A DNA stretch of 46,984 bases from a virus. The stretch lies in UHGV virus genome UHGV-0142121. The stretch is one strand, 5' to 3'. The translations under genes were made by a program, and so were the position numbers. The notes beneath the pieces were generated by a model. That model had not been told where the DNA came from. It did not search any database and saw nothing but the letters and a program-made list of their open reading frames with translations. Position 1 is the stretch's first letter. Each line of letters begins with the position of its first letter. Of this stretch, positions 57-46,916 are shown in pieces.

Positions 57-198
57 CGTAACAGTATATGCAAATGATGTTACGATAAATTAATTAATGG
101 TTACGATAATTATTTACACATAGTTAAAATTATGTTACGATGATTTATAGGTTGATTTTTAGCCTTTTAGGTGTAATGTTTTCGCATATTGTTACGAT
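57..198. promoter_or_regulatory. Telomere-flanking repeat array: GTTACGAT direct repeats at 79, 100, 134, 191 and inverted CGTAAC at 57; overlaps the telN upstream region
   Basis: Four copies of one octamer in AT-rich DNA between telomere and telN start; the reverse-complement octamer recurs next to the other telomere. Confidence 0.5.
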
Positions 199-212
199 AA
201 TGAGGGGGGCAC

Positions 213-2114
213 ATGGCGAAGCTAGGCGATGGCGGAATTGGTAAAATCATCTCTGATTTGGTGGCGGACGTTGACGCTATCGAAGCGTCCGACATCCCAC
301 AGGGAGATAAGACACGAAAATATAAGGCTGCGGCTACACGTGTTAAAAACGCGCTATTTTTAGATAAAAGGAAGTTCCGTGGTAACGGTTTGAAGAAACG
401 CATTACAGCCAATACCTATAACGCGTATATGACCCGTATTCGTAAACAGTTCGACGACCGTTTGCACCATCACTTCACCAGCAGCATTGAAAAGTTAGCG
501 GCAAAATACCCCGCCTACAGTGCTGAATTACAGGCGTGGCAATCTATGCCTGCGGCAAATATTCGTCAGGCATACGGCAATCTACAGGGCCAACTGAAGG
601 AAATTATGCCGCTGGCGGAGGTGCTTTCGGGTATGAAGTTCGGACCGGCTGCGGAGAAAAAATTGACGCGCCTGGCAAAAAAATACCCTGCCTGGAGCAT
701 CTATCTTAACGCGTTGACCAGCCAAGACTGGAAGTCGGTCGAAACCGAAATGCATGCCGCGTTCCAACAGGGAACCCGCTTGTTGGATGATCTGAATGGC
801 CTGAAAATCAACCATGAAATTCTGTATCACCTGCAGTTGAGTCCGGCAGAACGCTCATCGATACAGCAGCGCTGGGGCGAGGTGCTCAGCGAGAAGAAAC
901 GGTCAACTGTACTCTTGGACTACCCCAAATATATGCAGGCTGTGACCGAGCAGATCTACAAGGCGTTTGAACCATCACTTATCACGCAACGTAAGGATAT
1001 GGCGCCGCTGGCGTTCGCGCTAGCAGCCGTATCCGGGCGTCGATTGATTGAGGTGATGGTTCAGGGAGAATTTGAGGTTACCGGCAAGTATGAAGTTATT
1101 TTCTACGGGCAGGCCAAAAAACGAACCGGCGAGGATAAGGGGCGTAAAATTTATGTGCTGTGCGACCCGGCTCTGTTCGTTCAACGTTTAAATGAACTGA
1201 GAAGTTGCCCCGCAGCGGCTGATTTTGACGAAATCAGATCTCTGTTGAACGATGATAGCTACCGGGCCGCAAATGTGCGCATCGCATCAATTCTTGGTAA
1301 CACATTTAACCAGCACGCGAAGCTGTTCTTCGGCGACGACCGCCGAACATTCAAAGACACGCGCGCGATTTATGCGCGTATCACCTATGAGGCGTTTTTC
1401 CGCTACGACCCGCGCTGGAAAAACGTTGATGAGGACGTCTTTTTCTCTGAAATCCTGGGGCATGACGACGAAAATACGCAGCTGCACTACAAACAGTTCA
1501 AACTGCATAATTTCTCACGCAGCTGGCGCCCGGAAACGGGGATTGAAAATAAGCGCCTCGCTGCTCTACAAGCGCTTGACGACCAAATGCCTGGCTTCGC
1601 CAGGGGCGATGCCGGTATCCGTATTCATGAAACAACAAAGCGGCTGGTGGAGGAATCAGCTGATATCGTCATCAACACAAAAATATTACGAGATGCTGGA
1701 TTTAACCCGACGCTAGTTCGCCGGTACCTTGATTTTGTTGCTGAGGCGCTGGCTATGAGCAGTACGATTAACAATGCAGATGCGCCCTCTATTGTCATAA
1801 CCTCTGACGAACTGGATGATGAAGACGACCTCGCTGGCGATAGCGGTGCCGATAGAGAGGAAACCAGTGACGATACCCAGGCGCTGGAAGCTGAAGAGGA
1901 AGGCCGAGAAGATGGCGTGACCGCCGAGGCCGAAGAGGAAAAACCAGTACCAATAGACACTCGTCCACGCTTCTCCGCGCCCGTTCGTAGTGACGACGGC
2001 AGCTGGACGATCCGTTTCAAATACAAGGGGCAGCTATACGCCTGGAGTGGCGCGGCGGATAGTATCAGCAGTGCCATGAAATCAGCATGGTTTGCGTATT
2101 TCCCAGAAAATTAA
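213..2114 (+). CDS. telN: Protelomerase (telomere resolvase) TelN, 633 aa
   Basis: Long stretches match my recollection of N15 TelN (RKFRGNGLKKRITANTYNAYM, MAPLAFALAAVSGRR, FFGDDRRTFKDTRAIYARI, acidic C-terminal tail); GAGGGGGG ribosome-binding site; sits beside the telomere palindrome. Confidence 0.9.
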   Translation: MAKLGDGGIGKIISDLVADVDAIEASDIPQGDKTRKYKAAATRVKNALFLDKRKFRGNGLKKRITANTYNAYMTRIRKQFDDRLHHHFTSSIEKLAAKYPAYSAELQAWQSMPAANIRQAYGNLQGQLKEIMPLAEVLSGMKFGPAAEKKLTRLAKKYPAWSIYLNALTSQDWKSVETEMHAAFQQGTRLLDDLNGLKINHEILYHLQLSPAERSSIQQRWGEVLSEKKRSTVLLDYPKYMQAVTEQIYKAFEPSLITQRKDMAPLAFALAAVSGRRLIEVMVQGEFEVTGKYEVIFYGQAKKRTGEDKGRKIYVLCDPALFVQRLNELRSCPAAADFDEIRSLLNDDSYRAANVRIASILGNTFNQHAKLFFGDDRRTFKDTRAIYARITYEAFFRYDPRWKNVDEDVFFSEILGHDDENTQLHYKQFKLHNFSRSWRPETGIENKRLAALQALDDQMPGFARGDAGIRIHETTKRLVEESADIVINTKILRDAGFNPTLVRRYLDFVAEALAMSSTINNADAPSIVITSDELDDEDDLAGDSGADREETSDDTQALEAEEEGREDGVTAEAEEEKPVPIDTRPRFSAPVRSDDGSWTIRFKYKGQLYAWSGAADSISSAMKSAWFAYFPEN

Positions 2115-2123
2115 TTCACATAA

Positions 2124-2141
2124 CCGGGACCGTGGTCCCGG
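2124..2141. repeat. sopC-like palindrome CCGGGACCGTGGTCCCGG followed by TTTT; possible SopB site and/or bidirectional terminator between convergent telN and repA operons
   Basis: 8-bp inverted repeat around a 2-bp centre, 10 nt after the telN stop; same core as the dispersed TGGGACC..GGTCCCA family. Confidence 0.55.
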
Positions 2142-2277
2142 TTTTACAACCGACCTATCCAGCCCGTAGGGACGAACCTCTAACGGCATCCGGCTGAATT
2201 ATATGCCGAAAACTGTCACCAATATTTCTACCGGATGTTTTGCGAAAATTTCCTCGTTCATCCTCTGCGATAAATCA

Positions 2278-2661
2278 TTATTTAAGCTCCGTTTCTGGAA
2301 ACATTTCCTGCAGCCGCTTTTCGTAGCACACATCGTCGAAATACTTCTGCTCAACTTTCAACTCAAAGTCATTCAGCGTCATTTCTACAGGTCTGATACC
2401 ATAAAGCAGGGTACTTTTATTCATATCAAACATTTCCGTTCCTTCTTTGGTCCCTGCATCTTCCAGAACAGATTGAGCTATGTCAGAAAAGCAGATCGCC
2501 GCGCAGCGAAAATCAGCAAAGGCCCGATGCTCTCCAAACTCAGTCACCACATAAACGACGCGGGTCGGGCCACTGGCGCGGCGTTCAATTTCTCGTGCAA
2601 TATCTTGCTTAAGCTCATCCAGATCGTAGTCAGTTAGCTTTTTTACGTTAAGATCAATCAT
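2278..2661 (-). CDS. Hypothetical protein, 127 aa, acidic, last gene of repA operon
   Basis: ORF with ATGA start/stop overlap to the upstream gene; AT-richer than repA by eye; no recognisable motif. Confidence 0.5.
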   Translation of the reverse strand: MIDLNVKKLTDYDLDELKQDIAREIERRASGPTRVVYVVTEFGEHRAFADFRCAAICFSDIAQSVLEDAGTKEGTEMFDMNKSTLLYGIRPVEMTLNDFELKVEQKYFDDVCYEKRLQEMFPETELK

Positions 2662-3050
2662 GCCCCTACCTCACGTAGTTTCTGGTCGATATAACTTTCA
2701 AGTGCGCCATCTGTCGTCTTTTCACGTTTCAAAAACCATCTATCAGACGAAAATTTCCCTCTTTCCCGTTGGTGAATTAAATCGCCAGTGTCACGAATAG
2801 TTCTGGGAACACCCTGCATGACGATTGCAGGAAGAAACATGACAACGATGAGCAAAACCTTCATCCATGCCGAAGTGAAATACTGTGCCTCGAATATCTG
2901 AGATTCTGGCTCGAAGTAATACTCAATTTTTGCTCCAAATCGTTGCTTGCGGTTTGGCAGCATTTTGTTATGCGTAGCCCTGCTTACGGGAATTCGAACG
3001 AATCCTTTCTCACACAAGTTTTCATATTTGTAGATCACGTTAACCCCCAC
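2658..3050 (-). CDS. Hypothetical membrane protein, 130 aa, single central transmembrane helix
   Basis: Hydrophobic segment WMKVLLIVVMFLPAIVM; translationally coupled to neighbours on both sides. Confidence 0.5.
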   Translation of the reverse strand: MGVNVIYKYENLCEKGFVRIPVSRATHNKMLPNRKQRFGAKIEYYFEPESQIFEAQYFTSAWMKVLLIVVMFLPAIVMQGVPRTIRDTGDLIHQRERGKFSSDRWFLKREKTTDGALESYIDQKLREVGA

Positions 3051-3376
3051 TGGCCATCAGCAAACAGCGCTTCGTATTCGGACGCCGGCAGGCGCTGGCC
3101 CTGAATAGAAAAGTTCAGCCAGCCGCGAGTTTGCGGGTTGCCTTTGTCTTCTTCAGTCTCTCCGTTCCAGCGCTTCTCAGCTTCGCGTACCAGGCATTCG
3201 ACAGCTTTCAGGTAGTCCTCAGTTCGGTACCAGCCGTAGTTGACCGAGCCATCAGTTACCGCCCAGGCGACCTTCTTTTGTTCTTCCTGGATAGCACGAA
3301 GCATTTCGTCGCACTTATTCCGGCAGAACTGCAACTGGACACGATCCAGTGTTTTCAAAAAATCAGTAGTCGACAT
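3035..3376 (-). CDS. Hypothetical protein, 113 aa, immediately downstream of repA
   Basis: ORF 11 nt after repA stop on the same strand; no recognisable motif. Confidence 0.5.
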   Translation of the reverse strand: MSTTDFLKTLDRVQLQFCRNKCDEMLRAIQEEQKKVAWAVTDGSVNYGWYRTEDYLKAVECLVREAEKRWNGETEEDKGNPQTRGWLNFSIQGQRLPASEYEALFADGQWGLT

Positions 3377-3386
3377 AGATATCCCC

Positions 3387-6300
3387 TTAAACCGCCTGCA
3401 ACCGCTTCAGTTCGTTGTATTGGCCATCTGATAGTTGCCACATATTGTCAGCCATAAACAGCCCGGCAACCGTCGCCTGTATCAACCGTGGCGGCATAGT
3501 CGCCAGTTGTGCCAGTTCTTCCGGCGTCAGTGCGGTTCTCAGCCATGCAAATGGCACCGGCATCGCAGCGATAGCCTCTTCAATCGTCGTCAGCGTTGCC
3601 TCAATAAATGCCGTCTCAGCAGATCCAGATTGGGATCTTACATCTATATTTGATCGGCAATCGAGATCCGGTTCTTCCGGTGCCCCCACATCCAGTTTCA
3701 TCTGGACAAACGACAGTGATGCCTCGGCGCGACGCGCCAGAATTCCGTGAATGAATTCCCAGGATTCGGGGACGATTGACCACACGTAACCGAGGCCCTG
3801 TGAACGCGGTAGGCGGCGTTTTTGAGTCGCGTAACCGAATGCCTCACAGATCTGTTTGAAAACCGTCTCGGGGCGTTTCTGGCGGCCTTTAGGGTTTATA
3901 TAGCCACCGAACCGCAGGACGTTGTTGAAACGGTCCGCGGTGGTTGGGTCCATAAGTTTGGCCATAGCTTCCGCCATACCTTCCTGGCTGGCTTCACCGG
4001 CGCCGGTATCTGGGTTAATACCGCAGGTGGAGAAATACTCCCTGGCGGCCTTACGGTGCAGCGATGCGTACGTACGCTGGGTTACTTCCATCACCGGGCG
4101 GCTTTGGACGGTGTAGCCGGTTATTCCTGGCTGCATGCGGTCGAACTGCGCATCAGCTGCTTCGCGGTTGAGCGCGGTGATCGTTACAAATTCGTTACGC
4201 GGCCCTTTGCGGAATTGGTAGGTGAACGTGAAAGCCTGCTGCTCACGGTCAATGCGTGCGGCGGTCATTTCATCCATCGTCATCAGTTCGGCCAGCGTCA
4301 GTTTCTTCTTCCCGCCATCGAGCAGGAATTTCAGAGATTCCGGGCTGACATCCAGCATCAACTCTTTTTCGATATCCCAGCGCGCCAGTTGCGCCTGCTC
4401 ATCTTCAGATAGTGATCGCTTGCCCATCAGTTCGTCGCGTTCGTCTTCGTCCGGGGTTTCCACTTCCATATGGCGCAGAACGGTCATATCCCAGACCCGC
4501 TCTTTCGATGCCTTACGCAGTTCTTTGCCGGTTTCGCTGGCCAGCGAGTCTTCGGCCAAGTGGCTGACGTTATAGCCATCGGCGTAGAGAATGCAGATCA
4601 GGTTGTTGGCGAAATCGTTTCTGGCCTGGGCCTCCATCGCGGCAACTTTAAATTTCATGCGGACATAGGTGGTGTCCGCCAGACCAAGGGAAAGGCGGTC
4701 GCCATCCAGGATGGCGTCGGTAAATTCTTCGTTTATCTCGGCGGTTTCCAGCAGTGCCTGCAGGAACCCACGGCGGATGTTGTCGGCGTTCTCTTCGCGT
4801 ACGCCAGGCAGCTTGTTCAGGCCGACCATAAATTCGGTGGCGGTCCTGTCGCGGCGCAGCATCTGAATGGCGTCGGACGGCACTACCTGGCCGCAGAAGC
4901 AGCCGAAATGGCGGGTGAAGTGCCGTTCTTCGATCGAGACGCCAGAACTGATAGCCGGGCTATAAATCAGGCCATCGTAGAGTTTAGCGCGCTGGTTCGG
5001 CGCGTCGGTAAACGCCACGACTTCCTGATCCGGCTTTGTGTCCTGGCTGACGTAAAGCCATTTCTTTTCTGGCCAGCGGTCGCGCAGCTGCAGCAGCAAC
5101 TGTTCGGCAAAATTGGTTGAGTCGGTGGCCAGCAGGAATTTTTCGCCAGCGGCCACAGCTTTCAATACTTCAACCATTATGCGGTCGGTATCGGTGTAAA
5201 GCACGCGGCGCGCTTCGCGCGTACCGTCGACTTTTTTGTACTTCACATCAACCGGCAGCTCGATGACGTGGATCTGTGTCCAGGTCGACAGGCCGGTTTG
5301 TTCGCGTCTGGCCAGCGCCAGTTCGCAGAGGTCTACCAGGATATCGCTGGCGTCCGCATCAACCAGCAGTGCGTGGTCATCGCTGTACGCGATGGAGTCG
5401 ATAAGGCGATTGAACACATCAACCGGGTGCGCCATCGCTTTACCGGAAAGCGTAGCGCGCAGGCCCTGGGTAGCTTCATCCAGGCCAAAGAAATCGTGCT
5501 TGCGCATCAGCGGTTGCCAGCAGCCCTTCACGATTGAATTGATACAGATCGTCAGCTTGCTGGCATACGGCGCCAGTTCCTGATAGCCGGGGTCCTGATA
5601 GTGCAGGATATCGCAATTCATGCGGCGGCCATCGTCGGCACGCGTCATCATGTCCCAGAGGCCACCGATTAGCGAAACGCGGTGCGCAACCGAAACGCCA
5701 CGCTGCGCGCTGTGCATCATAGGGCGCAGCAGGTGCTTGGATTTGCCCGACCCCATGCCGGCACGGACTATTACCGGGCCATTCAGCGCTTTGATGTAAT
5801 CCAGCACGTCTTTGGTCATGTGCGGTGTATCGAACCGCTTATAGGTGATATGATCGGGGCGTATTGCCGGGTTCGTTACGCGCTCGCTGAATGATCGGAA
5901 AGCCTGGGCCTTGTCGCATTTCTGTTTGAAGGCGCGTTTAACGCGGTTATACACGGTACCGTGCAGCGCTTTGTCGGCGCCGAGCTGGTCCAGCTTCATT
6001 TTTATCAGCGAGATCAGCTCCTGCGGGGATAACTTGGACGGGCATTGCATCATGCCGGCATCAATGCAGCGTACCAGCTGGCGTGAGAACGCGCGGCGAT
6101 CGGAAACCGGCGCAACGGCCAGAGACAGCATTTCAGCATCAAAGGAATTGCCTGGCAGCTGCAGGCGGTTCTGTTTTGAAAACAGCTGGCGGTTAGTTTC
6201 GGTGGCACCACGCGCCAGGTGGAGATCGTTGAAATCGCTTAATTCAGTTTCGCTGCTGTCGAAAATCGGGAATGTGCAACGGACCTGCGGGAATTTCTTC

Positions 6301-7376
6301 ATCACGTCGATGCCGACTCTTAACCCGGTATTGCCCTTTCCATTACGGGCCGACTTCTGGTCGTTATCCAGTGCGCACCAGATTTCCATGCCTGGGTACA
6401 GGCTGACCAGCTGATCAACAACCTTGATAACGTTATTTGCTGACACAGCCACGACAACAGCGTCGAAGCGCTTTTTGGCAACGGCAAACACACTGGCGCC
6501 AGTCGCGAAGCCTTCAACAACGCAGATCCTGGTTGCGCCGCGCAGCTGGCCAATGATGTGGCACGAACCAGCAAAGTCACCGGAATCAACAGCGCGGGTC
6601 TGCAGCTTGTCGTTTCTCTCGGTGATTCGCTGCCAGCCAACAATCGGGCCAACGCGAGATTCCCTGTCTTCCCGGCGGTCATCAATATGAGACAGCGGGA
6701 TAGCCATAACAGTTTGTTTTTTAACCGTTTTAGAATTGGGACCATGGTCCCACTGGGTTACGCGCCTGACGTTGCAGTATGAGAAAATGGAGCTGATACC
6801 TTTCTTCACCGCGTATGGCCATGAACCATCTTCTGCCGGTGCGTTGGCGAATGCGGTGGAGAACTGCAGGTATTCGTTCAGGTCAGCGTCGCGGCGCTGC
6901 GACTCCATAAACACAGAGATAGCCTGCTGGCGTTCACGTTCCTGGCGGCGTGCCTCAGCACGTTTACGCTGTTCCAGCTCGCGCGCGGACAGTGGGACCA
7001 CGGTCCCACCGTTCTGTTCTTTGTACCGGCGATATTCGGCTATAAGGAACTGGAAACCACTCCAGGAGCCAGCGTCAGAGCCTTTACATACGAAGTTAAC
7101 AAACGGGTACTTGATGCCTTCCTGCGAACACTCCATGCGGGAGTAGATCTCAACCTTACCTTTCAGCTTTGGCTCAGTAACGGCAGGACCATGATGGGCG
7201 TACTTTGTGAATTTTTCGGCGGCACCGCGAGAGGCAGAAAGTTGAATATCACTGGCGCATTTATGCCAGTCGATGCCGGCAGCGCTCGCAAGATCACTCA
7301 ATTCATTTGATGCCGCGTCAAGCAGCGAAAACGGGTCAGAGTTAAATTTGTGTTGAAAAAAATCCGTTAATTTCAT
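3387..7376 (-). CDS. repA: Replication protein RepA (primase-helicase), about 1329 aa from ATG at 7376; track ORF extends to a TTG at 7388
   Basis: Size and architecture match N15 RepA; Walker A GMGSGKSK; GGTGA ribosome-binding site before the 7376 ATG. Confidence 0.88.
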   Translation of the reverse strand: MKLTDFFQHKFNSDPFSLLDAASNELSDLASAAGIDWHKCASDIQLSASRGAAEKFTKYAHHGPAVTEPKLKGKVEIYSRMECSQEGIKYPFVNFVCKGSDAGSWSGFQFLIAEYRRYKEQNGGTVVPLSARELEQRKRAEARRQERERQQAISVFMESQRRDADLNEYLQFSTAFANAPAEDGSWPYAVKKGISSIFSYCNVRRVTQWDHGPNSKTVKKQTVMAIPLSHIDDRREDRESRVGPIVGWQRITERNDKLQTRAVDSGDFAGSCHIIGQLRGATRICVVEGFATGASVFAVAKKRFDAVVVAVSANNVIKVVDQLVSLYPGMEIWCALDNDQKSARNGKGNTGLRVGIDVMKKFPQVRCTFPIFDSSETELSDFNDLHLARGATETNRQLFSKQNRLQLPGNSFDAEMLSLAVAPVSDRRAFSRQLVRCIDAGMMQCPSKLSPQELISLIKMKLDQLGADKALHGTVYNRVKRAFKQKCDKAQAFRSFSERVTNPAIRPDHITYKRFDTPHMTKDVLDYIKALNGPVIVRAGMGSGKSKHLLRPMMHSAQRGVSVAHRVSLIGGLWDMMTRADDGRRMNCDILHYQDPGYQELAPYASKLTICINSIVKGCWQPLMRKHDFFGLDEATQGLRATLSGKAMAHPVDVFNRLIDSIAYSDDHALLVDADASDILVDLCELALARREQTGLSTWTQIHVIELPVDVKYKKVDGTREARRVLYTDTDRIMVEVLKAVAAGEKFLLATDSTNFAEQLLLQLRDRWPEKKWLYVSQDTKPDQEVVAFTDAPNQRAKLYDGLIYSPAISSGVSIEERHFTRHFGCFCGQVVPSDAIQMLRRDRTATEFMVGLNKLPGVREENADNIRRGFLQALLETAEINEEFTDAILDGDRLSLGLADTTYVRMKFKVAAMEAQARNDFANNLICILYADGYNVSHLAEDSLASETGKELRKASKERVWDMTVLRHMEVETPDEDERDELMGKRSLSEDEQAQLARWDIEKELMLDVSPESLKFLLDGGKKKLTLAELMTMDEMTAARIDREQQAFTFTYQFRKGPRNEFVTITALNREAADAQFDRMQPGITGYTVQSRPVMEVTQRTYASLHRKAAREYFSTCGINPDTGAGEASQEGMAEAMAKLMDPTTADRFNNVLRFGGYINPKGRQKRPETVFKQICEAFGYATQKRRLPRSQGLGYVWSIVPESWEFIHGILARRAEASLSFVQMKLDVGAPEEPDLDCRSNIDVRSQSGSAETAFIEATLTTIEEAIAAMPVPFAWLRTALTPEELAQLATMPPRLIQATVAGLFMADNMWQLSDGQYNELKRLQAV
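6736..6753. repeat. sopC-like palindrome TTGGGACCATGGTCCCAC inside repA coding sequence
   Basis: Near-perfect 18-bp inverted repeat matching the dispersed family; encodes TQWDHGPN in RepA. Confidence 0.7.
7002..7019. repeat. sopC-like palindrome GTGGGACCACGGTCCCAC inside repA coding sequence
   Basis: Core TGGGACCACGGTCCCA, identical to the F sopC inverted repeat as I recall it; encodes GGTVVPL in RepA. Confidence 0.7.
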
Positions 7377-7405
7377 TATTTCACCCAAAAAAAGACGCTG
7401 CGCAG

Positions 7406-7435
7406 TTGCGCAGTGCAGGTGAAACGAACTACAAT
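7406..7435 (+). promoter_or_regulatory. Candidate sigma70 promoter (TTGCGC, 18-nt spacer, TACAAT) pointing away from repA
   Basis: Hexamers read by eye; overlaps TGCGCAG direct repeats at 7399-7413. Confidence 0.3.
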
Positions 7436-7441
7436 CGACTC

Positions 7442-7558
7442 ACAGTTGTGTCTTTGATCAGCTTTGTTCATTAAAGTGAATGCCAATCACTGACTGAGTT
7501 GAATCTAGACCTGTTTCACCCGAAAAGCCCTGGACGCCACATCCGGGGCTTTTTATTT
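7442..7558 (+). ncRNA. Candidate small RNA of about 115 nt ending in an intrinsic terminator (7526-7558); no ORF
   Basis: Promoter-like element upstream; 8-bp stem AGCCCTGG/CCGGGGCT with 9-nt loop followed by TTTTATTT; lies in the repA-cB intergenic region with no plus-strand CDS. Confidence 0.3.
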
Positions 7559-7644
7559 GTCTGAATCCAGAGGTGGTTAAAAAGTGCTCAATCCGCACGC
7601 TACCTCTGGGGCAAGTACATCCTGGTCAGTTGCTATCACGCCAC

Positions 7645-7674
7645 ATAATAGCCTCTGACAAGTACGTTTGACAA
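7645..7674 (-). promoter_or_regulatory. Candidate leftward promoter (TTGTCA, 18 nt, TATTAT) that would give repA a leader of about 260 nt
   Basis: Hexamers read by eye on the minus strand just downstream of the cB stop. Confidence 0.3.
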
Positions 7675-7694
7675 ACCTTGGTTACTAAAATTTA

Positions 7695-8324
7695 CTATCT
7701 GGCCTTAACTGCTATAGATTTAGCCACGCAGATAACGGGATGAATCAAAATAATTTCGTCAAGATCGATTATCACGCGCTGAGATCTGTCGTTCGGCGCG
7801 TCGAGAAACACTTTGCCATCACGCTTCGACGCTAACATCCTAATAAACGGGTCATTACCTGATTTTGTGACAACGACCACATCTTCCCCGGTCACCGGCT
7901 CGCGGTTTGGGTCTGCGATCAGCACTTCACCGATATGATACGGCGCCGCGACGTCGTTATCGACCATCAGGCCATACAGGGCCGCATCCTGAACATTGAT
8001 ATCAACGTATTCCCGGCAGTTCTGCGCCAGGCCGCTATTAATCATTTCCAGGTTGGGGCCTGTCGCGGTTGAACCGATAACAGGGACTCCACGAAACACA
8101 TCGCCGCCGGCACCAGTTAAGATCCACTCAACAGGACGGCCCAGCTCGCGCGCCAGCTTGATAGCCAGATCTAACGCGGGCATAGCATCACTATTTTCCA
8201 GGTGTGAAAGTCCTGCCCCGGTAATACCGACGCGTTCAGCTACGGCTCTCACCGAGAACTTTGATTTATTTCGCTTCTTCAGCTCTTCACGGCGAGCCTT
8301 CAGCCAATCACCACGTTTTTCCAT
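7695..8324 (-). CDS. cB: Prophage repressor CB (CI-like), 209 aa: N-terminal HTH plus C-terminal LexA/S24-type domain
   Basis: HTH-like segment VRAVAERVGITGAGLSHLE; divergent from a cro-like gene; position matches the N15 immB region. Confidence 0.8.
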   Translation of the reverse strand: MEKRGDWLKARREELKKRNKSKFSVRAVAERVGITGAGLSHLENSDAMPALDLAIKLARELGRPVEWILTGAGGDVFRGVPVIGSTATGPNLEMINSGLAQNCREYVDINVQDAALYGLMVDNDVAAPYHIGEVLIADPNREPVTGEDVVVVTKSGNDPFIRMLASKRDGKVFLDAPNDRSQRVIIDLDEIILIHPVICVAKSIAVKAR

Positions 8325-8345
8325 AGAGAGATATTAAATCAAATC

Positions 8346-8363: not shown

Positions 8364-8390
8364 CGGCTAAAGGGAATATTAGTGTAAATT

Positions 8391-39800: not shown

Positions 39801-40085
39801 CAGGTGTTTATCAGTTCTGGCTTCATCCAGGATGGCACTATTATCAATACAAAAATTGGTAATTACATTCAGTCTAACACCTGGGATGGTACCGGTAATG
39901 TTGGTTGGCATATCAACAAATCAGGCTATGCGACATTCAATGATGTCACTGTCCGTGGTGCAATTTATGCCAACAACGGCAATTTTGCATTTAACGGCAC
40001 CAATAACACTGTCGTCATCAACGGAAATGGGCTGACTGTTAATTTGTCTGGTGGCGGCAAAGTTGTCGTCGGGAGGTGGTCATAA
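36867..40085 (+). CDS. Host specificity / central tail fibre protein J, 1072 aa
   Basis: Size, position after K and I, lambda J-like N-terminus. Confidence 0.85.
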   Translation: MEITGAKGGGGSGSSDKGENRGTEIASVAYMKILLALTEGEAAGGFSGKDIYLDGTPLLDDSGNANFPGVTWEWRSGTVDQPYISGFPAVENEVAVSTELKYGTPWVKSINNTQLSAVRLRLKFPNGLYELRDSGGKSGYTVEFAIDISTDGSSYVEYGRDTASGIANNGYERSYRIELPPAQAGWQIRVRRLTPNANDARHADTSRIESITDIVDAKLRYPHTSLLFVQFDSQLFDGRTPTVTIKMKGIIIRVPSNYDPINRTYSGTWDGTFKWAWTNNPAWIFYDIVTNARYGLGRRITTNLVDKWTLYQIAQYCDAKVSDGAGGTEARHLCDLYISQRTDAWTVLMDLAAIFRGMISWSNNLLSLDADMPRELDPDFVFNKSNIVGSFNFSSSSERTNYSAAIVTYSNPNNGYNDDQASVHVPEVSSRFGFNTMEMTAVGCTRESEAQRRGLWGIETNRDDNAVEFKTGMEGRIPRVGKVIGVNNAPLAGRANGGRVAAAAGTKITLDRNTVAVPGNRLIINLPTGKAEGRTIKSVSGRAVTVESAYSVLPNAESAWVIDQQDLAIQLFRVRRVAIGSDDLVTISGLPYNPNKFAKIDDGAIVEDRPVTVVPPGSQAVPTNIEITSEYRIVQGIGINTLVATWDPVVNAIAYEVQWRQNSGDWINGGRTGNTRIEVDGIYAGRYVVRVRAINAMDVASVWAVSKEVQLDGKIGKPPVPVNLRTTPMLWGIRIDWSIPAGAEDSLYTELQYAQERDGNTALLLSNVPYPQSTYSQMGLRAGQEFWYRARLIDKIGNRSDWTDWERGLSNDNTDEYLDSIGTGFLTSADGDRLTSDIDTDLEAALQNALANHATAEHQWAQYGEVRADILVVKTTIADVDKAMAEMTTQVQAQIKDVTASLEDKLTATVDATSATAIHTLKAGVRINGIFYSAGISIAVLAEAGKPVVTRVGFNANQFVLMSGSGDTQYSPFAVINGQVFISSGFIQDGTIINTKIGNYIQSNTWDGTGNVGWHINKSGYATFNDVTVRGAIYANNGNFAFNGTNNTVVINGNGLTVNLSGGGKVVVGRWS
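38696..38711. repeat. Degenerate sopC-like site TGTGACCGTGGTCCCA inside J (one mismatch)
   Basis: 15 of 16 match to the palindrome core. Confidence 0.3.
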
Positions 40086-41029
40086 TGCCGGAAGGTATTC
40101 TGATTGATTACAACGATGGCCGTCCGATGATGGCAATTACTGCGGGGCTTCGCGCCCCCAGTTTTTGCACAACGTTCTCGGGCTGGTCATCCCAGTCAAT
40201 GCAGTACCCGGTCAATACACCGCTGGTTCCAGGTTCACAGGCTATCGTGGTGCCCACCAATCCCATTTACATCTATTCCTTTGCTGAATTTGATGTGGCC
40301 ATTATGACGAGCGTCACCCGAAACGGGGACGCCGGGGTCATCATTGGTGCAGAGACCATCGGGGGTAAGGCCCTCACTCCGGACTGGTCTGGTTATGTTA
40401 TGGAGCTGCTGCCTGCGGCGACGTATAACGAAGGATTACTGGTTTCAAACTCGACTGACTTCACCGCCATATCTAATCAGGCTGCGCTGATGACCTGCGC
40501 TTATTCCGGACGTATTACGGTTAGCGGCAGCGCGCCGCTTCCGGTGAGCGGTATTCCTTTCGGCAAATGGGATAACCCGAATGTGTCGGTGGGGTTTGAT
40601 GGCACCAGTATCATCGTGCGCGACATTTCCTATACAGGGCGGGACGACGTGGCCGGAACGGCGACGATAGACCTGGTGATATTCAATCAGACCGCACCTG
40701 TCGGCGGCGACGGTATCACGATGACCAACGCTGCAGGCCAGGTCACGTTCTCCACGCTGAAACGCCCCTTTGTCTATGACCGACAAATCCAGATCACCGA
40801 TGCCTTCCAGGATATTGGCGGTGGGTTCTGCCAGATAGTCTATACCGGCGTTCAGGTACGAATGATAGGTGGATGGGGAAATATCAGAACCAAAGGCGTC
40901 GTCATGTCAGGCGGTAGTGTCAGGTCAGCCTACAACAAAGTGTTTGCGGACCGCAATTCTGGTGCATGGGATATGACCCGTAACAGAAATATCGCCATGC
41001 CCATTCTAATTCTTCCGAATATGTACTGA
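40085..41029 (+). CDS. Hypothetical tail-associated protein, 314 aa
   Basis: GGGAGG ribosome-binding site; TAATG overlap with J stop; between J and tail fibre. Confidence 0.4.
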   Translation: MPEGILIDYNDGRPMMAITAGLRAPSFCTTFSGWSSQSMQYPVNTPLVPGSQAIVVPTNPIYIYSFAEFDVAIMTSVTRNGDAGVIIGAETIGGKALTPDWSGYVMELLPAATYNEGLLVSNSTDFTAISNQAALMTCAYSGRITVSGSAPLPVSGIPFGKWDNPNVSVGFDGTSIIVRDISYTGRDDVAGTATIDLVIFNQTAPVGGDGITMTNAAGQVTFSTLKRPFVYDRQIQITDAFQDIGGGFCQIVYTGVQVRMIGGWGNIRTKGVVMSGGSVRSAYNKVFADRNSGAWDMTRNRNIAMPILILPNMY

Positions 41030-41038
41030 GGAAAAACT

Positions 41039-42397
41039 ATGTCAGCAGGAACCTTAACCCTGACGAATAACTCTGCTGCGGTCGCTGGTAGCGGGACCGC
41101 GTTTACTACCGAGGTGGCGGCCGGAGATTTTATTGTTGTCACTGTCGGCGGCGTTCCCTATACACTCCCGATTAAATCAGTGGAAAGCGGTACAGCATTG
41201 ACGCTGGTCAGCAATTTCACCGGGCCAACACAGTCTGGCGCTGCCTGGTTTGCTGTTCCGCGCGTGGCGCTTAATATGGTTACCGCGGCGCTGGTGACTC
41301 AAAGCGCGGAGGCACTGCGCGGACTGAACTACGATAAGCAGAACTGGCAGCAGTTTTTTACTGCCGATGGTGATGTAACGATTGCGCTTCCTGATACCAG
41401 CCAGACAACGGGGCCATCAGCGAAAAAGTTAATTAAAAGTGTTAACGATAAAGCAGATAAAACAGCGCTTGATGAGTACGCCAAAAAGGGCAGCAACAGC
41501 GATATCACGAGTCTTTCCGGCCTAACTACTGCCCTAAGTGTTAAGCAGGGCGGGACAGGAGGTGACAATAAGACTGGCGCATGTAAAGGTATAGGTGCCA
41601 TGAATGCGGAATTGTCGGTGCCTAATGCCTCGGCGATAGCCCTGCCATCTGGATCGTTCTTCCTGGGTGATGGTCAGGAGGCTGGAGGGGCAGGTAAGCC
41701 ATTCACCTATTCGATGATTCTGCAATTATCTGCTGGTGGCGCAAGTCCTACAGGAGACTGGGTGCAGGTGGCATATCAGATGTTTGGTACCGGCGCTCCG
41801 AAATACCGAACACGTGTTGATTCTCCACCATCTCTGTCTAACTGGTTCGACTTCCTTGTCCGTGGAGTAAATACTACGGTGGACTCCAATGGATTCTACA
41901 AAACTTCATCGCCGATTATTAAAATTTGGGGGGATGGGACCTCTGAATTAAACGATGAGTCCGAAGGGGCAACCGTTGTCCGAATGGATACAGGGGTTTA
42001 TAAAGTATCTGGCGTCATGGGGTTTAACTCCAGTCCGGAGTGGGGAGGCGTGGAGGGCGGATATTCAGTACCGCAAAACGGCAACGGGCTGCCTCTGTTG
42101 TGGCTGGATTACGAAATAGCATCTGATGGTGATATTACAGTCCGAACGTATCATCGTACACACAGTAATGCGCCAGAATTTGCCCGAAACCTGATTGGTA
42201 TTAAACATGACGATGGTTCATTTACCGAAACGGTTAAAGATGGCGACCCGGTGGATATCCCGGCTGGTCGCTGGATAGATCTGCGCGTTGAGATGCCCCA
42301 CAACAGCATCTGGAATATTAAACAGATCGAGGCACAGGAAGCCAGAGAAAAAGCTGAGCGCGAGCGCCAGGAAAATCAGCAGGATGCCCAGTTGTAA
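41039..42397 (+). CDS. Tail fibre protein, 452 aa
   Basis: Position after J; Gly/Ser/Thr-rich with KQGGTGG motif; C-terminal coiled-coil tail. Confidence 0.6.
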   Translation: MSAGTLTLTNNSAAVAGSGTAFTTEVAAGDFIVVTVGGVPYTLPIKSVESGTALTLVSNFTGPTQSGAAWFAVPRVALNMVTAALVTQSAEALRGLNYDKQNWQQFFTADGDVTIALPDTSQTTGPSAKKLIKSVNDKADKTALDEYAKKGSNSDITSLSGLTTALSVKQGGTGGDNKTGACKGIGAMNAELSVPNASAIALPSGSFFLGDGQEAGGAGKPFTYSMILQLSAGGASPTGDWVQVAYQMFGTGAPKYRTRVDSPPSLSNWFDFLVRGVNTTVDSNGFYKTSSPIIKIWGDGTSELNDESEGATVVRMDTGVYKVSGVMGFNSSPEWGGVEGGYSVPQNGNGLPLLWLDYEIASDGDITVRTYHRTHSNAPEFARNLIGIKHDDGSFTETVKDGDPVDIPAGRWIDLRVEMPHNSIWNIKQIEAQEAREKAERERQENQQDAQL

Positions 42398-42532
42398 AAA
42401 TGGATAGTTGCCGCAACCACACCGTATGCAAGAGCATGATTGCGGCCGACTGGCGAACGTTCGATAGTGCGAGTATTGAATGATTGCCAGTCACGGCGGA
42501 TTGTACTTAAGCAATATGACGGTTCAAGGCGT

Positions 42533-42775
42533 TTAATCTGAAACCAGCCACATATCAGCCTCTTCAAACATTTCCTGAACAGCTCGGCTTATCTGTTCCT
42601 TCTCGTGCTTGCTGGCGTCAGTGTTGATCGCCGGCAATGTCATCATCGGTTTAACCCGGACATCAGCATCGGGGAAGATCCGGTGAACCCTCTTAGTCAA
42701 CTCGCCCAGAATGATATCTTTTGCACCGGGCAGACCATCAAAATTCCTTTTGTCATAAACGAGTTCCACGAACAT
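42533..42775 (-). CDS. DinI-like protein, 80 aa
   Basis: Aligns by eye with E. coli DinI (ELTKRVHRIFPD..., KHEKEQISRAVQEMFEEADMWLVSD vs KEDKQRISEILQETWESADDWFVSE). Confidence 0.7.
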   Translation of the reverse strand: MFVELVYDKRNFDGLPGAKDIILGELTKRVHRIFPDADVRVKPMMTLPAINTDASKHEKEQISRAVQEMFEEADMWLVSD

Positions 42776-42790
42776 TGCTCATTGCCTCTT

Positions 42791-42810
42791 TACTGGATGG
42801 ATATACAGTA
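42791..42810. promoter_or_regulatory. LexA-box-like element TACTGGATGGATATACAGTA within the divergent dinI-like / umuD'-like promoter
   Basis: CTGG-N8-ACAG, 17/20 to consensus; sits between -35-like TTTACT (42789) and -10-like TATACT (42812) of the rightward promoter. Confidence 0.5.
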
Positions 42811-42853
42811 TTTATACTGTGTTTTTATCCGGTGTTCAAGAGAGGGTATAAAC

Positions 42854-43243
42854 ATGGGCTTTCCTTCACCTGCGGCAGATTATGTTGAAACACGAATCTC
42901 CCTCGATCAGCAACTAATCAGCCAGCCCGCAGCGACTTATTTCATGCGGGCATCGCGTTCACATTTCAGGGAAGGAATACTCCAGGGAGCGTTGCTTGTT
43001 GTGGATGCATCACTTACTGCCTGCGATGGTTCACTACTGATATGTGCAATAGACGGGGAATTCAGGATCAAGCGATACCGAACTCACCCTCAGCCCCACC
43101 TGATAAATCTGGAAAACGGAAGAAGGGAGGCGCTGCCAGTAGATGATGGCGGTTACAGTTCTGCACCCGCTATATTCGGGGTGATCACGTACATCATTAA
43201 TGATGCCAGGAACGCGGAGTTTGATGACTGCCCGGTGATGTGA
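42854..43243 (+). CDS. UmuD'-like protein, 129 aa, starts at the position equivalent to the UmuD self-cleavage site
   Basis: MGFPSPAADYVETRISLDQQLISQPAATYF matches E. coli UmuD from Gly25 onward; the nucleophile-Ser region (GDSM in UmuD) is divergent; no umuC downstream. Confidence 0.7.
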   Translation: MGFPSPAADYVETRISLDQQLISQPAATYFMRASRSHFREGILQGALLVVDASLTACDGSLLICAIDGEFRIKRYRTHPQPHLINLENGRREALPVDDGGYSSAPAIFGVITYIINDARNAEFDDCPVM

Positions 43244-43340
43244 GAATCCACAGAAAACATCATATGCAAATTCCGTCAGAAGGAGATTTAGCGAAAAAAC
43301 ATTCTCCAAAACTCATTTGTAACTACATGATTTTATAGAG

Positions 43341-43380
43341 TTTGGCATGCAGTTTACTTGAAGGTAAAAAGCATGCCAAA
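43341..43380. repeat. 10-bp perfect inverted repeat TTTGGCATGC / GCATGCCAAA, 20-bp spacer, between convergent umuD'-like and sopB
   Basis: Seen directly; no adjacent T-run. Confidence 0.3.
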
Positions 43381-43438
43381 TTAAGCGTTAACTTATTGAA
43401 TGATATAAATTAACTATCTATGTCGCTAACCTTCTTGT

Positions 43439-44620
43439 TCAAAGGACGTAGCGCTTTGCTATTTCGTTACCTATTTTTTGAATCCGCTGGTCTTCAGTGG
43501 TTTCATCATTTAGTACGGTTCTGGCGAACGGGATTAGGGCCAGAATTTCGTTGGCGGGGATATCGTATTTCAAGCCTGTCGCCGCGGCGCGGATGTAGTT
43601 GGTCACATCATTAATTTCTAAAAATGCCTCATCCACTACCTTACCAACCGATTTTTGCTGTTCGGCCTGGTGAGCTTCCAGTAGTTCTTCAATCCTCTGT
43701 ACTAACGCTGGCGATACGTTGCTAAGTTGGAAGGATACAGAATCCCCCTTGTACTTCGCTTTCATCCCTTTACCAAACAGGCGCTCACGCACTGCAGGTT
43801 TTACTGGCTTTTGCGCTACCTGGTGCAGCTGGTCAAGAATGTCATCAGTTTCGAGCTGTTCACCAGCGCGCTTGCGCTTGGCCAGATGCTGCGCAAACGC
43901 AAACATTGCATCTTCATTCTCGGCATAGACTTTTGCCAGTGCCTCACCAGCTCTGGCGCTCAGCTCGTTAGGGTTACGGAAAAGGCCAATGATTTCGCGT
44001 GGTAGCTCTGCCGTCTTCATGCAGCGGACGATAATTTTTCGGGAGATATTCTCCGCTTCGGCCAGCTTACTGACGGTACCACCGAACTCATTAGCCAGGC
44101 GGCGAGCATAGCGTTTTCCGCGTTCGTAAGAGCTGGTCTGCCGGTAGTCGTTCCCGATCTGTGATAGCCAGGCCATTTGTTCGTCGTCCAGCTCGCCGAC
44201 GAGAACGCGGTATTCAGAGCTGGTGTAAATGGCTGTCTGGCGGCGGCGGCTACCGTCGGCCACTTCAATGATGCCAGAAATTTTGCGGCCAAAAGCTGGG
44301 TTTTGTTGCCCGGATGCGAGGAATGATGGGATCAGGTCATCCAGGGCGTCTTTTGTCAGTAGAGCCTGGTCCCGCTCGTTGCCGCCCCATACCATGGTCG
44401 CCTTTTCCACCATGTTTGCATCGACGGTTTCCAGCTTAAACGACACATCCCGCCCACAGACCGGAAGGGTGATATGGTTCCCGGTCATCCCGCGGACGCG
44501 TTCGCTTAGGTTTGCCACCGCCGGCGCCGCTGGTTTATGCGCTTCATCATGTCGTGGGACCGCGGTCACAGTGTCCAGATTAATTTGCGGAGCGTTTTTC
44601 ATTACAGGCGCGCGTTTCAT
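43439..44620 (-). CDS. sopB: Partition protein SopB (ParB family), about 393 aa from ATG 44620
   Basis: N-terminal 230 aa closely match my recollection of F SopB (ITLPVCGRDV, NERDQ, DALDDLIPSF, RVLVGELDDEQMA, AENISRKII); start overlaps sopA stop (ATGA). Confidence 0.85.
   Translation of the reverse strand: MKRAPVMKNAPQINLDTVTAVPRHDEAHKPAAPAVANLSERVRGMTGNHITLPVCGRDVSFKLETVDANMVEKATMVWGGNERDQALLTKDALDDLIPSFLASGQQNPAFGRKISGIIEVADGSRRRQTAIYTSSEYRVLVGELDDEQMAWLSQIGNDYRQTSSYERGKRYARRLANEFGGTVSKLAEAENISRKIIVRCMKTAELPREIIGLFRNPNELSARAGEALAKVYAENEDAMFAFAQHLAKRKRAGEQLETDDILDQLHQVAQKPVKPAVRERLFGKGMKAKYKGDSVSFQLSNVSPALVQRIEELLEAHQAEQQKSVGKVVDEAFLEINDVTNYIRAAATGLKYDIPANEILALIPFARTVLNDETTEDQRIQKIGNEIAKRYVL
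44555..44570. repeat. Degenerate sopC-like site TGGGACCGCGGTCACA inside sopB 5' coding region (one mismatch)
   Basis: 15 of 16 match to the palindrome core. Confidence 0.3.
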
Positions 44621-45828
44621 TTGTTGTTCTCCCAGCGAGTAGCAATCAGGCGGTCGTAAATTTCCCGGCAAACAGGTTCCCAGATAGCGACAGCATTGCG
44701 CCATGCTGTAGGGGTGCTGCGTTGGTTTGCAGCCTGCTCAAACACGGTGCGCATGCGTACCTGGCCCTTACCTACTTCGTCGGTTACGCGGACAACCTCC
44801 TTCAGCACCATCCCGCCCCAGGCGTTGCGGATCTGTTCATCCATCCAGGCAGATTGGTTGCCGACGGCCGTGCTGTATTTAGTTACCAGAACGCGGACAT
44901 CAGGTTCAAAGCCACCAAGGTCCACGTTGGCCATCAGGTCGCGAAGCATTGTGAAGAACTGAAGAGAGGAAACGTAGTCATACAGTTCAGCTGGTGTAGG
45001 TACAACGATCACATCTGCTGCGCATACGACGTTTATTGTGCCGATGCCGAGGTTTGGTGCGCTATCAATGACAATCAGGTCGTAGCTATCCCAGACAGAC
45101 TCGATAGCGGCGCGCAGAAGCAGGTGAGATGCCACCGGCAAGCGGCCTTCTTTCTCCAGTACCTCGATCTCTGATTCGATGCGGTGAATGGCCAGGCAGG
45201 ACGGGATGATATCGAGGTTCGGCCAGCAGGTAGGCTTAATCGCGTATTCAGCGTTATCACGTTCGCCCAGGTAGTACGGCAGCAGCGTATCGTCTGCGTG
45301 GATATGCAGATCAGGGACGTAGCCGTGGTACAAGCTGGCGGTTGCTTGCGGGTCAGTCGCATCAATCAGCAGAACGCGAAGGCCCTGCAGTGCAGCCCAT
45401 TGAGCCATATGTACGCTGGTCGATGTTTTGTATGCGCCACCTTTATGCGCGGCAATAGCCAACACAACAGGCGATTGGCCTTCCGGACGAGACGGGCGGG
45501 TACCAAAGTGATCGCGCATAGAGTTGATTTGCTCGATGGTATAGCCGGCACGTTGTGGAACGCGACCGCGAGTCACCATATCAGCCGGCGGCAGTCGCCC
45601 ACCATCTTCTGCATTGCGAATAGATTGCGGTGTAACACCGATCAGTTCTGCCGCTTCAGTAATGCCCCAGCGACGAGTGATGGCGCGAGACTCTGGGCTA
45701 TCATCACCAAATTGAGCCTGCGCGATAGCCATTGTCATGGCATGGCCACGAGAAATCAGTTCATCCAAACGCGATTTTAAATTCACTTTCGTACTCTCCG
45801 GTAACTTTGCGTAAAAATAGTAAAACAC
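44617..45828 (-). CDS. sopA: Partition ATPase SopA (ParA family); probable start at GTG 45786 (389 aa) rather than the track start at 45828
   Basis: Near-collinear with my recollection of F SopA (AHKGGxYKTS Walker A, IIPSCLA, VIDSAPNLGIGTINVVCAADV, EPVCxEIxDRLI); GGAGAG ribosome-binding site before the 45786 GTG; CTTTGC-like motifs upstream. Confidence 0.85.
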   Translation of the reverse strand: MFYYFYAKLPESTKVNLKSRLDELISRGHAMTMAIAQAQFGDDSPESRAITRRWGITEAAELIGVTPQSIRNAEDGGRLPPADMVTRGRVPQRAGYTIEQINSMRDHFGTRPSRPEGQSPVVLAIAAHKGGAYKTSTSVHMAQWAALQGLRVLLIDATDPQATASLYHGYVPDLHIHADDTLLPYYLGERDNAEYAIKPTCWPNLDIIPSCLAIHRIESEIEVLEKEGRLPVASHLLLRAAIESVWDSYDLIVIDSAPNLGIGTINVVCAADVIVVPTPAELYDYVSSLQFFTMLRDLMANVDLGGFEPDVRVLVTKYSTAVGNQSAWMDEQIRNAWGGMVLKEVVRVTDEVGKGQVRMRTVFEQAANQRSTPTAWRNAVAIWEPVCREIYDRLIATRWENNK

Positions 45829-45924
45829 TATAAAAGACGCAAAGCAACATTAAAAAAGCAAATTTGTTTATGTGACGCATTAAAGAGAACTATCAACACT
45901 AAAAAGTTTATAGGACAGAGCTAG

Positions 45925-45964
45925 CCGTACGTAGGCCGTACAAACCACCCGTACAACGTACGGG
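45925..45964. repeat. CCGTAC direct repeats (45925, 45936, 45949) ending in palindrome CCCGTACAACGTACGGG, immediately upstream of the GNAT gene
   Basis: Three direct hexamers at roughly one-helical-turn spacing plus an inverted copy. Confidence 0.5.
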
Positions 45965-45965
45965 T

Positions 45966-46448
45966 TTGATTGACAGCGGGGATGACGTAATCAATAAGTT
46001 CATCCCGCAACTAAAGCGCCAGTGTGGCCGTGACAACATCAATGCATTGCTGTTGCTTGATGGGGATAAAAAACTATTCGGCTTTGCCACGGCCACCCTT
46101 TATCAGTTAGGACGGGATGGTATTCCGGAAGATACATATCCGTATGCACTACCACCCGCAATAGCGGTGATGAAAATCCCAATGATTGCCATCGATAAAC
46201 AACTACAAAGGCAAGGTTGGGGGCACGATTTATTGCGTGCAATCCTTGATTACAGCGTTGAGAGCGCTGATTTGGTGAAAGGCATTAAAGGTGTTTATCT
46301 TGATGCAAAAGTAGACGCTCGCTCGTTTTATGAGAGCTTTGAATTCAAAGCTCTCAGCGAAACGGTTAGCGAGAATGGCACTATCCCAATGCTCCTCCCT
46401 ATGGATGTCCTCCGGGAGAGCCGGAAAAACTGGGAGCAGTCCGCATAG
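45966..46448 (+). CDS. GNAT-family acetyltransferase-like protein, 160 aa, TTG start
   Basis: Acetyl-CoA motif Q-x-x-G-x-G (QRQGWGHDLL); no in-frame ATG in the N-terminal 70 codons; no antitoxin-sized partner ORF adjacent. Confidence 0.45.
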   Translation: MIDSGDDVINKFIPQLKRQCGRDNINALLLLDGDKKLFGFATATLYQLGRDGIPEDTYPYALPPAIAVMKIPMIAIDKQLQRQGWGHDLLRAILDYSVESADLVKGIKGVYLDAKVDARSFYESFEFKALSETVSENGTIPMLLPMDVLRESRKNWEQSA

Positions 46449-46478
46449 GCGTGGACGTAAAAGCCAGAACTCAATGAA

Positions 46479-46508
46479 AGAGCCACCGCGAGGTGGCTCT
46501 TTCTCTTC
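46479..46508 (+). terminator. Hairpin after the GNAT gene (terminator-like)
   Basis: 9-bp stem AGAGCCACC/GGTGGCTCT with GCGA loop, followed by TTCTCTTC. Confidence 0.4.
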
Positions 46509-46746
46509 TGAAGGGCGGCATATGACATGCAGCGCGAAGCGCTGTGGAAGCATAAAAAGGGGTTTTATAGAGGCAAAAGAGCCAAACTGGAAGATGGTTC
46601 AATAAACGTCAACACCTAACATAATGTTTTTCAATGATAATATAAGGAATTTCCGTTTAACTGTTGGAGAACAACAAGCATCATAACACGTGATTTTTTT
46701 ACTATTTTTTATTTTCATTCGATGAATGAATGAAAGCAAATAACAA

Positions 46747-46916
46747 CGTAACAAAATACGAATTTGAATTACAATAATTGAACACACTACCACGCCAATA
46801 AAATGACCAACCATAAAACCAATAGAACCTAATCAAACAAAATCATCGTAACACAATCTACAATTAATCATCGTAACAACATCCGAATGAATTAGCAGGG
46901 TGTATCATATCGTAAC
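46747..46916. promoter_or_regulatory. Telomere-flanking repeat array, right arm: ATCGTAAC at 46845, 46870, 46909 and CGTAAC at 46747, in AT-rich non-coding DNA
   Basis: Reverse complement of the GTTACGAT repeats next to the left telomere. Confidence 0.5.

Follow-up and report, generated by a model that had tools for sequence, protein, structure and literature searches.

Outward-directed short repeats at both telomeres of an N15-like linear plasmid prophage: a regular member of the tos accessory class

Introduction

In N15, the natural target of the protelomerase TelN spans ~310 bp and comprises a 56-bp telRL site (telO plus L3/R3) accompanied by L1, L2, R1 and R2, which are degenerate copies of L3/R3 (PMC12624138). 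These outer repeats of the tos region persist though the 56-bp core is enough for resolution. Here, we examine the short repeats that flank both telomeres of UHGV-0142121, a viral stretch of 46,984 nt referred to below as the window (the whole stretch, one strand, with coordinates counted from its first letter). They constitute a new and unusually regular member of the known class of tos accessory repeats.

Recent work suggests that TelN must remain on the telomere to block Mre11-Rad50 (SbcCD). TelN has a KD of 200-300 nM for the core and remains on the hairpin product, and its C-terminal truncations protect hairpins in vivo only if over-expressed (PMC12624138). The same authors suggest that the stirrup domain (CTD1) might bind the repeats and so build a protective complex, a proposal that is a hypothesis for N15 too, and they draw a shelterin-type analogy for TelN (PMC12624138). 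On the practical side, linear cloning vectors and the production of 'doggybone' DNA rely on the minimal telRL only.

Two further systems are close enough to be informative. In phiKO2, the protelomerase TelK is a homolog with a solved structure (2v6e), and the phiKO2 record annotates a 50-bp telRL only, leaving the surrounding repeats unannotated. In PY54, publications describe one 15-bp inverted repeat as the flanking element, the need for which in vivo is partial in PY54 and nil in P840.

Telomeric repeat arrays

The window comprises an N15-like linear plasmid prophage in full and in plasmid orientation. Since each end carries a perfect 27+27-nt fold-back, both hairpin telomeres were read through in sequencing or assembly: positions 1-27 and 46958-46984 are exact reverse complements of the neighbouring 27 nt, the true duplex is 28-46957 (46,930 bp), and the genuine left arm begins at 28 with GCGTATATTTAATAATGTGTGTCGTTT. 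The two fold-backs, telL and telR, agree over the first 20 nt counted from the tip and are both centred on TATACGCGCGTATA, as in a protelomerase target, and the protelomerase gene telN stands beside the left array.

The octamer GTTACGAT occurs four times on the plus strand between telL and telN, and three times on the minus strand before telR. These seven exact copies compare with 1.1 expected in the whole window, and none of 100 shuffles gave seven. For the end regions alone, ~0.016 copies are expected in each, and none of 20,000 dinucleotide-preserving shuffles reached four (left) or three (right); the 46,291-bp interior holds no exact GTTACGAT. The GC content of the end regions is 29% and 33%, against 52% overall. 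A position-weight scan widens the unit to roughly T-n-n-T-GTTACGAT-R-A-T. In total, eight copies share the orientation of their arm (four per arm, seven of them exact, with a unit of 9-12 nt), and one inverted copy is added at telL. The features of both ends are as follows.

1-54: telL, left telomere; 27+27-nt palindrome, 100% complementary, tip between 27 and 28, core as in relatives
55-62 (-): inverted copy AACGTAAC (= GTTACGTT on the minus strand), abutting telL
79-86 (+): left copy 1, GTTACGAT, +52 from the tip; the least conserved copy
100-107 (+): left copy 2, +73 from the tip; ends 5 nt upstream of the -35 hexamer
113-118 (+): predicted telN -35 hexamer TTTACA, invariant in relatives
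134-141 (+): left copy 3, +107 from the tip; TACGAT at 136-141 is the predicted extended -10
191-198 (+): left copy 4, +164 from the tip; separated by 3 nt from the downstream Shine-Dalgarno sequence and by 14 nt from the ATG of telN
213-2114 (+): telN, 633 aa, with the N-terminal, muzzle, catalytic and stirrup domains of TelK (four TelK Pfam domains)
46745-46752 (-): right copy 4, 206 nt from the tip; GTTACGTT, with one mismatch, aligned with a perfect GTTACGAT in the orthologous arm of the relative L081
46845-46852 (-): right copy 3, 106 nt from the tip
46870-46877 (-): right copy 2, 81 nt from the tip
46909-46916 (-): right copy 1, 42 nt from the tip; matched in position by a copy of phiKO2-type elements (-50)
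46931-46984: telR, right telomere; perfect 27+27-nt palindrome, tip between 46957 and 46958, found in fused form on L173, L175 and L176

The initial annotation had counted four direct repeats on the left arm, all of which are exact, and "three to four" inverted ones on the right, where the alignment with L081 settles the number at four; a fifth, weaker right-arm copy, GTTATGAT, lies at 46680-46687. The mirror symmetry that it described is borne out for orientation, the copies being mirrored around the dyad within roughly 150-200 bp, but not for exact spacing, as the distances from the left and right tips differ and are symmetric only approximately.

Additional regularities surround these copies. 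The inverted copy and left copy 1 together form, at 52-89, a 38-bp imperfect palindrome (19+19 nt, 79% complementary) beside the telomere palindrome. Such an inverted copy, next to telRL and confined to its telN side, recurs at +28/29 in phiKO2, Citrobacter and Salmonella elements and in L012, L032 and L051, and its equivalents in many clades read ATCGTAAC or ATCATAAC. On the right arm, a 21-nt unit ATCGTAACAA-n-AT-n-(C)GAATGA is common to 46745-46765, 46870-46890 and 46909-46929; as this extension is not kept in the 71% relative, it is probably a recent local duplication.

The nested inverted arrangement that had been predicted for the fused configuration exists in public assemblies. Many public contigs encode a GNAT protein that agrees with that of the window at every residue, and on three from independent assemblies, L173, L175 and L176, its gene is followed by a 695-bp spacer and then by telN. 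This spacer is identical to the right end plus the left end of the window joined at the hairpin tips, and in it telRL is intact and the repeats are nested and inverted around a 40-bp perfect palindrome.

A fourth contig, L174 (GCA_001880865.1, MDCX01000348.1), was compared over 1984-2679 with positions 46449-46957 and 28-215 of the window. Its sop-side arm is identical to that of the window up to the dyad, and divergence begins ~15 nt beyond it and affects the left arm and telN (637 aa). This mosaic joint at the resolution site suggests an exchange of arms between related phage-plasmids.

Conservation and overlap with the telN promoter

The region from telL to telN was aligned for the window and five distinct relatives whose TelN is 71-95% identical. 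Of the 32 motif columns, 6 vary, and of the 123 non-coding columns outside the motif, 58 do (Fisher p=0.0026). Left copies 2 to 4 together show one variable position in 24, a change in copy 4 (1/8 columns) that is confined to L005, and copies 2 and 3 are invariant. The inverted copy at 55-62 is invariant in five close relatives. On the right arm, all four copies align with those of L081 (TelN 71%, SopA 85%) across diverged spacers. We conclude that the repeats are real and selected.

An overlap of the left-arm repeats with the telN promoter region had been proposed from the window alone, and the comparison with relatives supports it. The distance from the invariant TTTACA to the TACGAT of copy 3 is 17 nt, with TG preceding TACGAT, and the spacer is constant in length and variable in sequence; fixed hexamers separated by a drifting spacer of fixed length are the footprint expected of a promoter. 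The telN transcript is predicted to start near 148. Copy 4 lies near the Shine-Dalgarno sequence of telN (GAGGGGGG, 202-209) and, because only 3 nt separate the two, it can be no promoter for a normally translated telN. Its position is one at which a bound protein would block transcription or initiation. When all copies were compared with a sigma-70 extended -10 (TGnTAnnnT with a -35-like hexamer at 16-18 nt, and a transcript that contains the ribosome-binding site), copy 3 fitted, and copies 1, 2 and 4 and the right-arm copies did not.

Between copies 3 and 4, the block AGGTTGATT at 149-157 is also invariant in the alignment. A second telN promoter could use it as its -35 (TTGATT), together with a weak -10 near 174-179, in which case copy 4 would fall at ~+5 to +12 of the transcript.

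A shared element in N15-like tos regions

Each N15-like tos region inspected has short repeats on either side of telRL that follow a common orientation rule. An element (T)GTTAYGAT flanks telRL across these N15-like elements in the same dyad-mirrored orientation, N15 and PY54 included, and its clade-specific forms are ATCGTAACA in Salmonella plasmids and ATCATAACAC in phiKO2 and Citrobacter elements. Among 30 non-redundant N15-like elements, the telN side carries exact GTTAYGAT at a ratio of 41(+):13(-) and the sop side at 34(-):4(+), and 12 of the 13 telN-side exceptions represent the conserved copy that borders telRL at +28/29. The position is shared as well, since 21 of the 30 elements, N15 among them, have an exact GTTAYGAT at +152..155 from the dyad, even though inter-clade spacers are ~36% identical, which is about random for their composition. 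Several clades have an additional copy at ~+98. The counterpart of the shared copy in the window is copy 4 at +164: the copies at +107 and +164 retain the 57-bp spacing of +98 and +155 and are shifted outward by ~9-10 bp, i.e. about one helical turn. In other clades, the +155 copy is preceded at 16 nt by TTGATA, TTGTTA or TTGCTA.

In some clades, the flanking repeat is almost the same as the distal telRL arm of the element that carries it, with 12/14 identities in L040 and L051 (P<0.004) and shared 6-mers in L012 and PY54, which points to a protein that reads that arm. The character of degenerate L3/R3 copies is thus clear in L040 and L051, as it is in N15 (11/14). For the window, direct reading gives 9/12 identities between a right-arm copy and the telR arm TGTTCTGTTAAT, and the window copy matches N15 R1 at 13/14 and N15 R3 at 10/14.

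Comparison with N15, phiKO2 and PY54

The limits of the N15 repeats L1, L2, R1 and R2 were inferred from PMC12624138 and from the tos primers of PMC2847241. The right-hand N15 tos primer ends in ...GGATATCGTAACAC (PMC2847241), which places the N15 tos border at ATTGTGTTACGATATCC. The border repeat, ATTGTGTTACGATA, is identical at 11/14 positions to the R3 arm ATTGTGTGCTGATA, and a window copy, ATTGTGTTACGATG at 46842-46855(-), is identical to it at 13/14. This degree of identity makes the window repeats homologs of the outer tos repeats of N15 and goes beyond the mere likeness to the N15 L/R repeats put forward in the initial annotation; the same element in the same orientation is present in N15-like elements and PY54.

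The two regions share their general plan. Both have a resolution palindrome with the same TACGCGCGTA core, telN directly on one side and sopAB on the other, and both arms carry short dyad-mirrored repeats within ~200 bp. The telN-proximal repeat lies just 5' of the telN ribosome-binding site, copy 4 of the window being the counterpart of N15 R1. They differ in that N15 has one GTTACGAT and otherwise TGTTC-type repeats, whereas the window has seven perfect copies in addition to the near-perfect right-arm copy and the inverted telL copy; in the telN-proximal positions (+98/+155 in N15 and +107/+164 in the window); in the inner telRL arms, which are unlike (TATTTAATAAT versus TAATGGACTAT) and are accompanied by TelN proteins that are 55% identical; and in the presence of a GNAT gene between sopA and telR in the window.

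phiKO2 has GTGTTATGAT / ATCATAACAC arrays around telRL that obey the same orientation rule, with copies at -50, -81, -125, +98 and +155, and an inverted ATCGTAAC abuts its telRL at +29, as at 55-62 in the window. Its motif has TG where that of the window has CG. In PY54, GGGTTAC(GAT) repeats occur on the tel side, one GGGTTACGATAAAG lies ~45 bp upstream of tel and the distal telRL arm holds GGTTAC; on the other hand, Tel is 41% identical and the core is a 42-bp perfect palindrome. Rap1/shelterin arrays offer a functional analogy only, namely that several sequence-specific sites at an end could recruit a blocker of Mre11-Rad50. There is no homology with these arrays, and the window ends are covalently closed hairpins with ~4 sites per arm, for which the binder would be the resolvase itself.

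The window TelN matches the TelK structure 2v6e (E=8e-212), retains the catalytic-Tyr motif HYKQFK and ends with an acidic linker followed by a conserved domain of ~50 aa. Its identity with N15 TelN and phiKO2 TelK is 55-57%, and a search of the plasmid collection gave 63% at best. Searches with the C-terminal domain gave no Pfam or PDB sequence match, and a word-index search with the C-terminal fragment was also empty; its predicted fold weakly resembles a double-stranded-nucleic-acid-binding (dsRBD-like) module.

TelN binding and alternative readings

The existence, orientation, conservation and family-wide homology of the repeats and their overlap with a conserved promoter-like arrangement are observed here; TelN binding, the TelN domain responsible and autoregulation are inferred. 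We favour, with a probability of roughly 0.55, a reading in which the repeats are tos-type accessory sites that TelN would bind, raising its occupancy at the telomere and, on the left arm, repressing telN. The accessory repeats would be additional versions of the distal telRL half-site (L3/R3 in N15) that have diverged slightly, with arrays pointing away from the dyad. TelN, with its moderate affinity for the core, would occupy them too, so that several molecules could sit on the last ~200 bp of each arm. In this way, TelN would be kept concentrated at the hairpins and at the replicated telLL and telRR junctions, where the arrays turn exactly symmetric, and the cluster would favour both resolution and end-capping when TelN is scarce. 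Occupancy of the left arm would also repress telN, as copy 3 is the putative promoter -10 and copy 4 lies between the promoter and the Shine-Dalgarno sequence, and TelN output could thereby be tied to telomere occupancy. TelN is a natural candidate for the binder, given that the repeats always accompany telRL and telN and take the orientation of the distal half-site on each arm.

Several observations weigh against this reading. TelN can do without its C-terminal domains in protection and resolution in vitro (PMC12624138), the 56-bp telRL of N15 alone is enough for resolution in vitro and in vivo (PMC3540006), and P840 does not need its flanking inverted repeat in vivo (PMC10612081). In the window, left copy 1 is not conserved (5/8 columns variable), and the repeats match their own telL arm at best at 9/14, a similarity that is not significant (P=0.77). 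GTTAYGAT is better conserved across clades than the telRL arms, which would also suit a different conserved reader. Finally, TGTTACGAT fits the extended -10 consensus TGnTAnnnT, and RNA polymerase may explain part of the conservation.

The last of these objections leads to the first alternative, in which the repeats are promoter elements themselves, i.e. extended -10 sites (TGTTACGAT) of outward promoters or sigma-70 sites that require no dedicated binder, with the left copies driving telN and the right copies driving transcription that leads away from the telomere. We consider it unlikely as an account of the arrays. A T precedes GTTACGAT in six of the seven exact copies, which yields TGnTACGAT with the key -10 positions A2 and T6. 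Copy 3 has its conserved TTTACA at 17 nt and the +155 copy of other clades has -35-like hexamers at 16 nt, and every copy is directed away from the dyad, as are telN and, in N15/phiKO2, sopAB. However, copy 3 alone has a usable -35, the minus strand of the right arm is free of any called promoter, and a transcript starting from copy 4 would miss the Shine-Dalgarno sequence 3 nt away. On the right arm, the copies point towards a terminator hairpin and a GNAT gene that converges on them, and no conserved gene is there for them to express; most N15 accessory repeats are of the TGTTC type and thus unlike a -10. In addition, the least constrained positions of a -10 are fixed here, as CG in 15/15 copies of the window clade and as TG in the phiKO2 clade, which indicates a reader other than sigma-70. 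Because of these fixed bases, the -35 found at copy 3 only, the right arm without a conserved gene and the N15 repeats unlike a -10, the -10 fit is not the whole story.

A second alternative is that another sequence-specific protein, from the host or from the phage-plasmid, binds the repeats and organises the sub-telomeric DNA without TelN. The motif is kept across clades in which TelN is 41-57% identical and the inner telRL arms differ, and the resemblance of the window repeats to their own telL arm is not significant, both of which are in keeping with such a protein. Nevertheless, we regard it as quite unlikely. No candidate was found: the initial annotation had proposed footprinting with CB as well as TelN, but known CB operators are 16-bp two-fold symmetric T-A-N10-T-A palindromes located only in immB and upstream of repA (PMC4997575), and CB was set aside because its operators differ in form and sit only at these places. 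The telomeric motif is an asymmetric 8-12-mer with no exact copy beyond the ends, immB included, and the repeats of the cB-cro intergenic region are unrelated to it. The repeats that resemble SopA operators (GCAAAG) sit elsewhere, 5' of sopA. Moreover, the telomeric repeats always occur with telRL and telN, they equal the TelN-read distal arm in some clades, and the TelN stirrup and C-terminal ~50-aa domain are conserved parts that could read a conserved motif.

A bolder version of the TelN reading can be envisaged, in which (T)GTTAYGAT is a family-wide second recognition code, from N15 to PY54, read by the C-terminal ~50-aa domain of TelN, and the arrays act both as an occupancy sensor that represses telN and as a shelterin-like cap against SbcCD. 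The distances of the element from the dyad would then be fixed (~+98 and +155, with an offset of ~9-10 bp in the clade of the window) and the catalytic core would not be its reader. Free TelN that the arrays do not absorb would shut off telN, so that supply could scale with telomere number. This version is speculative and, to our mind, improbable.

It is highly improbable that the repeats are neutral relics of telomere-arm duplications, or AT-rich chance, with no present function: although the 71% relative conserves neither left copy 1 nor the inverted copy and the N15 core telRL is enough for resolution, shuffles exclude chance, left copies 2-4 and the four right copies are kept amid diverging bases, and position and orientation are maintained across clades with unalignable spacers.

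Returning to accessory TelN sites as the preferred reading, the clean array of the window, the footprint in its relatives and the natural fused forms together make a good substrate for questions on TelN spreading, on the domain that reads the repeats and on telN feedback.

Other features of the window and its relatives

The gene order from telL (telN, then repA, a cB-like repressor gene, sopB/sopA and the GNAT gene) is that of N15. No close DNA relative was returned by megablast and blastn of both ends against phage and plasmid collections, and an exact-sequence look-up with SopA gave no match; the close relatives used here were obtained via protein searches. No known RNA family was found within the window.

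A scan of IMG/VR with a telomere-arm pattern gave one true relative, the other match (L068) being a chance occurrence inside a coding region, and a contig scan for relatives gave at least seven loci, all distant. A scan of IMG/VR for three spaced ATCGTAAC gave 86 loci, of which 80 were analysed. The sole telomere phage among them was an already known relative, and the other loci were unrelated tandem repeats or AATCGTAACAAA arrays located 5' of a small Zn-ribbon gene without TelN nearby. With so many unrelated loci carrying it, the bare 8-mer is not diagnostic. The AATCGTAACAAA arrays, found at L138 90-175, at L126 145-210 and on ~20 similar IMG/VR contigs, often near contig ends and with spacings such as 21/23/18/13 or 22/10/20, probably represent a separate operator or iteron system that shares the 8-mer by chance.

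In relatives of the window, GCAAAG / CTTTGC repeats are located 5' of sopA (L081 1200-1260, L001 870-915 and L003 2330-2385); similar to the repeats of the SopA operator in the F plasmid, they are separate from the telomere repeats. In L085, an IS605-family OrfB/TnpB gene (2385-3566) lies just 3' of a telN whose product is 94% identical to that of the window, where small ORFs of a DUF5448 region are found instead.

The GNAT acetyltransferase gene of the window (45966-46448, plus strand) occupies the interval from sopA to telR, which is purely non-coding in N15 and phiKO2. A GC-rich hairpin at 46478-46503 (AAAGAGCCACCGCGAGGTGGCTCTTT), 3' of this gene, resembles a bidirectional terminator. Finally, a GNAT protein identical to that of the window is found in 54 blocks of the public assembly collection.

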